A DNA stretch of 59,077 nucleotides from Candidatus Hadarchaeum sp. GTDB lineage: Archaea > Hadarchaeota > Hadarchaeia > Hadarchaeales > Hadarchaeaceae. Below are positions 20,199 through 53,841 of this stretch, piece after piece (position 1 is the stretch's first letter; every line of letters starts with the position of its first letter). The position numbers and the translations under genes are program-made. The stretch spans positions 1 through 59,077 of the forward strand of contig NZ_JBMFOX010000004.1 in the NCBI RefSeq assembly GCF_049969415.1, given 5' to 3'. The notes under the pieces are model-generated. The model searched no databases and was not told the origin of the DNA. It saw only the letters and a list, made by a program, of their open reading frames with translations.

Positions 20199-20957
20199 AT
20201 GCCGGTGGAAAGAACTTTCATCAAACAGGGGATCAAGCGGGTTCAGCTCGAGACCTTTCTTGAGAATGAGCTTGCGAAAGCCGGATACGGCGGAGTCGAT
20301 ATCAAGAGGGTTCTCACCGGCACTAGGGTCACTATTTACGTGGAGAGGCCGGGAATGGTGATCGGCAAGAAGGGCAAGAGCATCAAGCAGCTGACTGATG
20401 ATTTGGAGCAGAAGTTTGGCTTGGAGAAACCACAGGTAGAGGTGGTGGAGATACCCAAGCCGGAGCTGTCAGGCCCTATCATGGCCAAGCACATCGCCTT
20501 TGCTTTAGAGCGGGGCCTAAGCGTTCGCAGGGTCGGCCAGAGCATGGTGAGAACGATTATGGGTGCTGGGGCTAGAGGTGTGGAAATAGTGATTTCCGGT
20601 AGGATTGCCGGAGAGCGGTCGAAGAGCATGCGGTTTTACGAGGGTTACTTGAGCAAAGCTGGCGAGCCGGCCCAGAAGCTGGTCAGCCGCGGACAGGCGG
20701 TGGCAAAGCTGAAGCCGGGAATAGTTGGAATCAAAGTGAGCATAATGCCGCCGGACGTCCCCTTGCCGGGAGAGATAAAGATTGCGGAGCCCGCGCCAGA
20801 AATGAAGGAAAAGCCAGCCGGTGAAAAGGCCGAGGAGCCTAAGGTAGAGAAGACCTCTGGAGAAGGCGTGGAGGAGCGACCTGCTGGTGAAAAGGTCGAG
20901 GAAACCAAGGACGAGAAGGATAAGGAAGGTGTTAACGATGGCGACGCTCAAGCCTGA
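20199..20957 (+). CDS. rps3: 30S ribosomal protein S3 with charged C-terminal tail
   Basis: RPGMVIGKKG KH motif, GARGVEIVISG, GIKVSIMPP. Confidence 0.97.
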   Translation: MPVERTFIKQGIKRVQLETFLENELAKAGYGGVDIKRVLTGTRVTIYVERPGMVIGKKGKSIKQLTDDLEQKFGLEKPQVEVVEIPKPELSGPIMAKHIAFALERGLSVRRVGQSMVRTIMGAGARGVEIVISGRIAGERSKSMRFYEGYLSKAGEPAQKLVSRGQAVAKLKPGIVGIKVSIMPPDVPLPGEIKIAEPAPEMKEKPAGEKAEEPKVEKTSGEGVEERPAGEKVEETKDEKDKEGVNDGDAQA

Positions 20958-21147
20958 GGAAATAAGGTCGATGAGTCCCGACGAGATGCTGCAGAAGCTG
21001 AGAGAGCTACGGTCAGAACTGGCCCGGGCCAAGGCCACGGCAGCCGCGGGGGGCTCGCTGGAGAATCCGGCGAAAATCCGGGAACTCAAGCGGGCAATCG
21101 CCAGAATCCTTACCATTATAAGGGAAAAACAGCGAGGAGGTGGATGA
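20938..21147 (+). CDS. rpl29: 50S ribosomal protein L29
   Basis: ATG 20938; ENPAKIRELKRAIARILT. Confidence 0.95.
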   Translation: MATLKPEEIRSMSPDEMLQKLRELRSELARAKATAAAGGSLENPAKIRELKRAIARILTIIREKQRGGG

Positions 21148-21150
21148 GCA

Positions 21151-21459
21151 CTGCAAGAGATCTGTAAGGTTTGTGGTCTGCCCAAGGAACTCTGCGTCTG
21201 CGAGGAGATAGCCCGAGAGCAGCAACGGATAAACGTATATGTTATCAAGCGAAAGTTCGGCAAGGTCGTGACGGTCATAGAGGGCCTCGATGAGAAGCAG
21301 GTCAGCATCAAGGACCTGACCAAGAAACTGAAATCAGAGCTTGCCTGCGGTGGAACTTGGAAGGATGGACGCATAGAGTTGCAGGGGCACCATGAACAAC
21401 GGGTAAAGGAAGTGCTCGTGAGTCTTGGGTTCACTCCTGAGATGATAAACATGAGATAG
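21151..21459 (+). CDS. sui1: Translation initiation factor aIF1/SUI1, probable CTG start
   Basis: Frame open from the rpl29 stop: (L)QEICKVCGLPKELCVCEEIAREQQ...LKSELACGGT...IELQG; no in-frame ATG/GTG/TTG precedes the Zn-knuckle; SD GGAGGTG at 21136-21142. Confidence 0.9.
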   Translation: MQEICKVCGLPKELCVCEEIAREQQRINVYVIKRKFGKVVTVIEGLDEKQVSIKDLTKKLKSELACGGTWKDGRIELQGHHEQRVKEVLVSLGFTPEMINMR

Positions 21460-21467
21460 GTGGCGTT

Positions 21468-21740
21468 ATGCCGTTAACCAAAAGGAACATCTTGCGGCAC
21501 GAGCTTATTGGGCTCGAGGCACAGGTCGTGAGTAGCTCCGATCCTACTCTTTTGGGCGTCTACGGCAAGATTTTGGACGAAACGCGAGACATGCTGGTGA
21601 TTGAGCATATGTCAGCCGCGAAGATTGTTCCCAAGTCAGGTTCATCTTTCGAGATAAAGCTCCCCGACGGGCAGGCCGTGATCATCGAGGGCGAGAAACT
21701 GGTTGGCCGGCCCGAGGAAAGGGTCAAGCGGAAGAGGTGA
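21468..21740 (+). CDS. rnp1: RNase P protein component 1 (Rpp29/Pop4)
   Basis: HELIGL, G.I.DET, RPEER; conserved position. Confidence 0.92.
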
Positions 21741-53556: not shown

Positions 53557-53841
53557 TTATTCGGTGGCTCTCCCAATTCGCAGCGAAGTGTAGAAGCCAT
53601 GTTCCTTAGAAACGCCAAAGTTTACCCAGAGGCTGCGATCTTCGTCAATGGCTATCCGGATGGAGTCGGGGTATGGTTTGCCTTCGGGCCAATTTATGTA
53701 ACCATTCGGTATCACTAATGAAAACACGTCTCCCTTGACCGGAATATTGACCGTGTAAGGCTCTCTATCCTCGCGCTTGGCCACGATTCTTAGCGTCGAT
53801 ATTTCCCTCGGGGTCTCGACCTTACCAAAATTTTTTGCTAT
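53557..53841 (-). CDS. Hypothetical protein, about 94 aa, possible ATA start (alternative GTG at 53784)
   Basis: Open frame; perfect SD AGGAGGTGA at 53846-53854 precedes in-frame ATA; TATA-like element near 53918-53925. Confidence 0.5.
   Translation of the reverse strand: MAKNFGKVETPREISTLRIVAKREDREPYTVNIPVKGDVFSLVIPNGYINWPEGKPYPDSIRIAIDEDRSLWVNFGVSKEHGFYTSLRIGRATE

Follow-up and report, generated by a model that had tools for sequence, protein, structure and literature searches.

At which codon does translation of the archaeal initiation factor aIF1 begin when its gene offers no canonical start codon near the N-terminus? The question is raised by the junction between rpl29 (ribosomal protein uL29) and the aIF1/SUI1 gene on a 59,077-nucleotide stretch of DNA from Candidatus Hadarchaeum sp. 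(hereafter the window), which is the entire contig C4 of a genome of 1.47 Mb in 138 contigs that is 95% complete (G000 below). The 3' end of rpl29 reads GGA GGT GGA TGA and is followed by GCA, CTG and then CAA GAG ATC TGT. According to the initial annotation of this DNA, the N-terminus of aIF1 lacks ATG, GTG and TTG, only GCA (21148-21150) and CTG (21151..21153) follow the rpl29 stop codon, and a Shine-Dalgarno (SD) motif GGAGGTG (21136..21142) lies 8 nt before the CTG. We confirmed all of this in the window sequence, where the first canonical in-frame codon is the GTG at 21268..21270, codon 40 of the open frame; all features of the junction are on the plus strand. Comparison with related genomes indicates that the CTG at 21151, which aligns with the start codons of relatives, is very probably the start codon of aIF1, giving a coding sequence at 21151..21459 of 102 codons plus the stop codon TAG (21457-21459). 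The source is a hot-spring archaeon, and by analogy with bacterial and eukaryotic initiation factors the weak CTG, which it has in common with most of its family, may let aIF1 limit its own production.

CTG at the aIF1 start position across the order

Among the species genomes of the order, 65 in number, a protein search recovered the aIF1 gene from 64 and missed it in one of 56% completeness (G051). The locus of one more genome (G064) is interrupted by a contig end, and the N-terminus was readable in 63 genomes. We took as the compared position the codon four places before the first cysteine. It is CTG in 34 genomes, ATG in 18, GTG in 3, TCG in 4 and GCG in 4. The CTG codon is found in 34 of the 45 genomes of the window's family, across 10 genera, and the three genomes with GTG belong to genus g12 of the same family. 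In the four other families (f2-f5), each of the 18 genomes has ATG at exactly the position of the CTG, as does G065, the sole genome of the phylum from outside the order. To these were added 80 loci from named public records, 62 of which are titled Woesearchaeota, Nanoarchaeota, Methanomassiliicoccales and others, with four mis-binned under bacterial names. Every one of these 62 has its ATG three or four codons ahead of the cysteine. The four under bacterial names (Bifidobacteriaceae, Lachnospiraceae, Bacteroidaceae and Firmicutes; L088, L102, L103 and L107) are contigs with a Methanomassiliicoccales-like aIF1 locus and are probably the result of mis-binning.

Other start arrangements occur within the window's family. 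Five genomes have an ATG start two codons upstream of the compared position and one has a GTG start three codons upstream. In four of these five (G041-G044), the upstream ATG is that of an ATGA overlap with the rpl29 stop codon, which a spacer 1 nt shorter brings into frame. Two more genomes (G006 and G015) have ATA where G041-G044 have the upstream ATG, and this ATA overlaps a TAA stop codon; no canonical codon occurs among the 13 open codons upstream in G006. A non-canonical start is thus conserved among relatives, as CTG in most of the family and as ATA in these two. Because the CTG is common to 34 independently assembled species genomes, the indel at the junction that the initial annotation had considered, or any other assembly error, is excluded as its source. 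Together with the lack of a synonymous leucine codon there in any of the 63 genomes, this recurrence places the pattern beyond chance. Ordinary starts in relatives had been named as evidence against a special start of aIF1. Such starts do exist, being ATG throughout outside the family, but they occupy the very codon at which the family has CTG.

Constraint on the CTG triplet

Within the 34 CTG genomes, five invariant leucine columns of aIF1 each draw on 5-6 different codons, and only 2-12 of the 34 genomes have CTG in a given column. As choosing these genomes by their CTG makes a count within them circular, we also counted codon changes over all 63 genomes, using a tree of six linked proteins. 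On this tree, 15 conserved aIF1 codons with 4- or 6-fold degeneracy underwent 16-27 changes each (mean 21.3), and the four leucine codons among them underwent 21-27 changes each. The CTG triplet position changed 8 times and never to another leucine codon (synonymous leucine in 0 of 63). Its surroundings are variable: the triplet between the stop codon and the CTG takes ten forms among the CTG genomes, and the codon before the cysteine is ATC, ATA, ATT, GTA, GTC or GTG, with GTG, GTC and GTA all present inside genus g8. The synonymous variation of the latter codon marks it as an ordinary isoleucine/valine position that hides no start. Judged by these sequences, the constraint at the CTG is on the nucleotides and not on the amino acid.

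A single substitution would turn CTG into ATG, GTG or TTG, and TTG occurs at the aIF1 start position in none of the 63 genomes. Its absence there, when TTG and CTG alternate at the start of a DUF424 gene of the same lineage, suggests that the CTG itself is under selection in aIF1.

Shine-Dalgarno geometry and the case for CTG

The SD for aIF1 lies within the final codons of rpl29. One of two 16S rRNA 3' ends in the genome, on contig C19, reads ...GATCACCTCCT, which makes the complementary GGAGGTG a strong SD. A second, different 16S 3' end on contig C74 departs from the C19 copy a few bases before the anti-SD; one of the two may stem from another organism, and the contamination estimate of the bin is 2%. 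All 34 CTG genomes place the GGAGG core 10 nt from the CTG, and 30 of them have the full GGAGGTG. An in-frame stop codon lies 3 nt upstream of the CTG in 31 of the 34 and abuts it in one, and in the other two rpl29 is in another frame; in both, the CTG and its 10-nt spacing from the SD core are retained. The rpl29 stop codon is TGA in 25 CTG genomes, TAA in 8 and TAG in 1. A search for a conserved RNA hairpin gave no convincing candidate: when 33 distinct junctions of the CTG type (-50 to +70) were aligned and folded together, the energy reached only -1.9 kcal/mol. The arguments for the CTG as the start are its alignment with the ATG found in other archaea, its invariant nucleotides and its fixed distance from the SD.

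The same junction can be read without initiation at the CTG. In that case stop-codon readthrough would make aIF1 as a uL29-aIF1 fusion, or ribosomes starting at the upstream ATG would shift by +1, or initiation would take place further downstream (ATC 21160 or GTG 21268), or the arrangement would be an assembly error, a possibility countered by the 34 separately assembled genomes that have it in common. The two genes are indeed in the same frame with one sense codon between them in 31 of the 34 CTG genomes, and public gene calls of 99, 96 and 93 aa begin at internal codons. An obligatory fusion, which the initial annotation had named as a possible refutation of its proposal, is contradicted by the occurrence of three types of stop codon and by the two genomes with rpl29 in another frame. 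A +1 frameshift has no upstream ATG to depart from in 14 of the 34 CTG genomes. More generally, the signature of programmed recoding is lacking across the CTG genomes, as neither the stop type nor the frame relation nor the upstream ATG is conserved. A start at the codon before the cysteine is opposed by the variation of this codon as an ordinary isoleucine/valine position, and with a start further downstream the protein would lose the zinc knuckle or some of the SUI1 domain. We therefore consider an origin of aIF1 without CTG initiation very improbable.

The losses that a downstream start would entail follow from the domain layout of the protein. The stop-to-stop frame of aIF1 covers 21148..21459 (103 codons), and its SUI1 match (Pfam PF01253, 6.8e-20; 71.8 bits, with a cut-off of 25.5) extends over residues 24-95 and over profile positions 1-76 of 77. 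Ahead of it, the translation carries the archaeal N-terminal zinc knuckle CxxC...CxC (CKVCGLPKELCVC), a motif present in 80 of the 80 loci from named public records. The GTG at 21268 is downstream of the start of the SUI1 domain, and a protein beginning there would lack the zinc knuckle and the first 17 SUI1 residues. Pfam matches of the neighbours place aIF1 between rpl29 and the gene of the RNase P protein component p29 (Rpp29). The former covers 20938..21147, from the ATG at 20938 to the TGA at 21145-21147 (Ribosomal_L29, PF00831, 7.7e-20, over 20938-21144), and the latter has an ordinary ATG start and covers 21468..21740 (PF01868, 1.5e-23, match 21468-21737).

Existing annotations differ on the start of aIF1. 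Public protein sets include 102-aa forms with methionine at the CTG, some of them in NCBI records of metagenome-assembled genomes under the names 'translation initiation factor' or 'YciH', and there are also gene calls of 93, 96, 99 and 104 aa. The CTG start is thus already silently annotated in places, and annotators disagree. Given this disagreement among gene callers, near-cognate starts in the phylum will yield truncated or missed gene calls.

The out-of-frame ATG at the junction

The initial annotation also described an out-of-frame ATG at 21144 that overlaps the rpl29 stop codon as ATGA and opens a mini open reading frame (ORF) encoding MSTARDL, and it gave this mini-ORF a competing role. 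The element is real in the window, where it reads ATG AGC ACT GCA AGA GAT CTG TAA (21144..21167), but it is not conserved. An ATG lies seven bases before the CTG in 20 of the 34 CTG genomes, GTG stands there in 4 and neither codon in 10, and the mini-ORF has 7, 24, 33, 45 or 72 codons with no conserved peptide. With the ATG in only 20 of 34 genomes, the mini-ORF is best regarded as optional rather than as a conserved part of the arrangement.

Only 3 nt separate the ATG at 21144 from the SD core. In G041-G044, an ATG at the same place and at the same 3 nt from the core is the only aIF1 start available, which indicates that such an ATG can initiate despite the short distance, presumably by re-initiation at the ATGA overlap. 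From this comparison, the out-of-frame ATG of the CTG genomes is probably able to initiate as well and is not inert, and in the present genome it may divert some terminating ribosomes into a dead end.

In the full model of the initial annotation, the mini-ORF would be an essential decoy into which high aIF1 diverts ribosomes from the CUG. The use of the ATGA overlap as the sole aIF1 start in G041-G044 fits with it, as does the standing of ATGA as the commonest coupling geometry, as reported in PMC10666635. We nevertheless regard an essential decoy as improbable, since 14 of the 34 CTG genomes are without the ATG, the length and the peptide of the mini-ORF vary, and a TGA stop codon preceded by an rpl29 codon with A as its final base always yields such an ATG; it is most simply a by-product or a relic.

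Evolution of the start codon

A locus tree of 63 rows and 724 columns was inferred with a quick IQ-TREE search. The CTG state required 5 changes on this 63-row tree versus 21 with shuffled labels, and 6 changes when G065 was added. In the locus tree, the ATG families f3 and f4 and the GTG genus g12 are placed inside the window's family, next to CTG genera, and the approximately unbiased (AU) test does not reject monophyly of the family (p 0.061). ATG and GTG may have been regained, or the family may have acquired the CTG a single time, at its base. Outgroups often have CTG ATG or CTA ATG at the aIF1 start, which suggests that the CTG type may have arisen through loss of the ATG triplet beside a pre-existing CTG. 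Across 36 prokaryote groups, a switch from AUG to CUG was seen in only 2 of 61,358 reconstructed AUG starts (PMC5622118).

A candidate feedback loop on aIF1

The comparisons above can be combined into a mechanism in which aIF1 would be translated from the near-cognate CUG at 21151. Ribosomes would be brought to it by the strong SD GGAGGUG inside the end of rpl29, fixed 10 nt upstream, acting jointly with re-initiation at the CUG by ribosomes that terminate at the rpl29 stop codon 3 nt upstream. Re-initiation after termination is reported to be limited to very short distances in an archaeon, and in Haloferax and E. coli to drop steeply with distance and work best at ATGA-type overlaps (PMC10666635). 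The initiator tRNA would pair with the CUG with one mismatch, and the protein would start with methionine and have the usual archaeal N-terminus M-x-E-I/V-C. In genomes with the ATGA overlap, re-initiating ribosomes could also enter the out-of-frame dead-end mini-ORF as an optional extra.

The protein made from this start has properties that could close a loop. The Sulfolobus solfataricus aIF1 is reported to destabilise initiation complexes on non-AUG mRNA, and the Pyrococcus abyssi aIF1 to proofread initiation complexes (PMC6237735, PMC4705826). Since aIF1 rejects non-AUG complexes, high aIF1 should lower initiation at its own CUG: abundant aIF1 would reduce it and scarce aIF1 would allow it, resulting in negative feedback on both the aIF1 level and start-codon stringency. 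A near-cognate start that has long been kept, though ATG, GTG and TTG are one mutation off, is what such a loop would be expected to show. We infer initiation at the CUG by Met-tRNAi, coupling to rpl29 and autoregulation from the arrangement of the locus. By analogy with infC and eIF1, we assign a probability of roughly 45% to self-limiting feedback through the CUG start of aIF1.

A farther-reaching version, in which the CUG of aIF1 is a set-point that holds stringency low throughout the family, so that CUG, AUA and ACG work and drift into or tune other starts (those of dcd, DUF424, a SatP-like transporter and a 94-aa ORF, described below), appears rather unlikely. If true, the whole lineage of Hadarchaeaceae would be in a naturally occurring 'Sui-' state, and a fidelity factor would have come under weak-start feedback independently for a third time, IF3 and eIF1 being the earlier two.

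Evidence against the feedback, and candidate near-cognate starts in other genes

Several observations weigh against the feedback through a CUG start. Nine of the 45 family members have a canonical aIF1 start (ATG or GTG), and the weak start is thus not obligatory. The 10-nt spacing between the SD and the CTG is within range but non-optimal: among ATG codons of G000 that follow an SD with a length of at least 6 nt, spacings of 7, 8, 9 and 10 nt are represented by 33, 22, 11 and 6 cases, with the peak at 7-8 nt. Aragorn found no initiator-like tRNA-Met in G000, and with introns allowed it gave one intron-containing tRNA-Met candidate. A search of public sequencing runs returned one DNA run, which covers 21239-21420 only and does not reach the junction, and no RNA run with the locus. 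Finally, CTG, ATA or ACG codons at start positions of other genes weaken aIF1 as a special case, as detailed below. The case that the initial annotation made for start-codon fidelity at aIF1 therefore stands in part, with the CTG start borne out by the comparison and its singularity diminished by near-cognate codons at the starts of other genes.

The whole of G000 was scanned twice for SD motifs followed by near-cognate codons, and inspection of the hits turned up the individual cases. Neither scan showed a statistical excess of CTG, one of them giving 4 of 152 versus 3.3% overall. There are 342 ORFs with late canonical starts in G000; of the 16 in the window, most were antisense-like by eye. 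At the same loci as aIF1, none of 242 aligned start codons of uL29, Rpp29, uS17 and uL14 is CTG, with the N-terminus of uS17 aligning poorly.

In dcd, which encodes a dCTP deaminase-like protein (PF22769; C45:4789-5403 of G000, minus strand), a 7-nt SD is followed by CTG CCG CTC TCG GAT. The start over 11 loci is CTG in five (G000, G001, G002, G003 and G007), TTG in three and ATG in three. The DUF424 gene (C2:92633-92920, minus strand) adjoins the 3' side of an aIF2-beta-like gene, the latter named by eye from its C-terminal sequence. Its CTG in G000 follows the upstream TAA stop codon by 2 nt, and the GTGA overlap start of close relatives has been lost there. Codon 1 of DUF424 at 30 family loci is CTG in 10, TTG in 14, ATG in 4 and GTG in 2. 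At five of the ten CTG-type loci (G001, G002, G003, G007 and G015), a GTG or TTG additionally stands two codons before the CTG, and all ten sampled genomes of other families have a canonical start. In dcd as in DUF424, the first canonical codon comes only after the Pfam domain has begun.

A gene for a SatP-like transporter (GPR1/FUN34/YaaH, PF01184; C27:9493-10071, minus strand) repeats the order seen at aIF1, namely an SD, TGA, one triplet and CTG. The CTG is present in G000 and G001, several relatives have ATG or TTG, and the first canonical codon in G000 comes only after the conserved NPAPLGL motif. Within the window, an ORF of 94 aa on the minus strand (53560-53841), which had no Pfam match, has a perfect 8-nt SD (GGAGGTGA), then 4 nt and ATA, with a canonical codon 19 codons further in. 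Its start is ATA in G000 and G001, ACG in G003 and ATG in G004 and G005, the SD being kept; from its sequence, this looks like near-cognate initiation.

In genus g16 of family f5 (L029, L114 and L116), ATC replaces the ATG of ATG CCN ATA ACN in Rpp29 in three of three genomes, and a nearby GTG in two of the three is out of frame. The Rpp29 of g16 may begin at AUC; the aIF1 of this family begins at ATG. Phosphoglycerate kinase (C3:41962-43191 of G000) was rejected as a case of an ATA start, since an in-frame ATG is present six codons further up in G001 and G003. In G000, an in-frame TGA lies between the position of that upstream ATG and the ATA; it may reflect a nonsense change or a sequencing error, or translation may restart at ATA or GTG.

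Taken at face value, these genes indicate that near-cognate initiation seems to be tolerated in the lineage beyond aIF1, and they bring up a serious rival account, in which the CUG is the aIF1 start and no feedback operates. Hadarchaeaceae would be generally lax in start selection, and the CTG would set a low constant output, aided by the strong SD and the coupling to rpl29, or persist as a nearly harmless variant. The near-cognate codons at the starts of dcd, DUF424, the SatP-like gene, the 94-aa ORF and the Rpp29 of f5 all fit with it. It is at odds with the age and uniformity of the aIF1 codon, as the other cases are young, occur in 2-10 species and alternate with TTG, whereas the CTG of aIF1 is found in 34 species of 10 genera and has never become the TTG that one substitution would give. 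The lack of a statistical CTG excess behind SD motifs in G000 also counts against it. We regard constant laxity as possible, short of probable. Laxity and feedback are combinable, as the CUG of aIF1 could itself set the lax stringency.

Comparison with known systems

The bacterial initiation factor IF3 is encoded by infC, which has an AUU start codon and is autoregulated at the level of translation; IF3 reportedly discriminates the start codon in vivo (Sussman et al. 1996). The aIF1 gene resembles infC in that the gene of a factor rejecting non-canonical starts itself begins with a near-cognate codon, which is kept in many species though AUG is one mutation off. The proposed logic is also alike, with more factor leading to less initiation on its own mRNA. 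The two systems differ in their parts, IF3 and aIF1 being unrelated proteins from different domains of life, and in the codon, which is AUU in infC and CUG in Hadarchaeum aIF1 (AUA in two relatives). They differ further in that the feedback of infC is experimentally proven, whereas that of Hadarchaeum aIF1 is read from sequence.

The eukaryotic eIF1 is said to combine a poor AUG context with autoregulation (Ivanov et al. 2010). As aIF1 is the homologue of eIF1 (Pfam SUI1), the likeness here extends to the protein, and in both cases a weak initiation site would be placed on the own mRNA of a stringency factor. However, eIF1 keeps AUG and has its weakness in the flanking context met during scanning, whereas Hadarchaeum aIF1 has its weakness in a near-cognate codon, positioned by the SD and by coupling to the upstream gene. 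Related work concerns eIF5 (PMC3326321).

With regard to coupling, the 3 nt between the rpl29 stop codon and the CTG and the ATGA overlap of the sister species are both inside the range of -8 to +10 nt given for re-initiation in PMC10666635. Known termination-reinitiation uses ATG or GTG, and the step at CUG is a proposal made here for aIF1. An archaeal aIF1 gene has been suspected of non-standard decoding before: a review mentions a reported -1 frameshift in the aIF1 annotation of S. solfataricus P2 and a re-sequencing that suggested a possible error (PMC8211752). That suspicion concerned a frameshift and not the start codon, and the CTG of Hadarchaeaceae recurs in 34 genomes. We found no description of a non-AUG start or of autoregulation of archaeal aIF1 in the full-text literature searched, which lacks most subscription journals.

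The junction of SD, stop codon, 3-nt spacer and CUG is a concrete object for testing, with the sister species that have ATG, GTG or AUA serving as natural controls. If true, a conserved CUG start with feedback in aIF1 would mean that the weak-start logic known from infC and eIF1 is present in all three domains of life, achieved through unrelated or differently wired parts.

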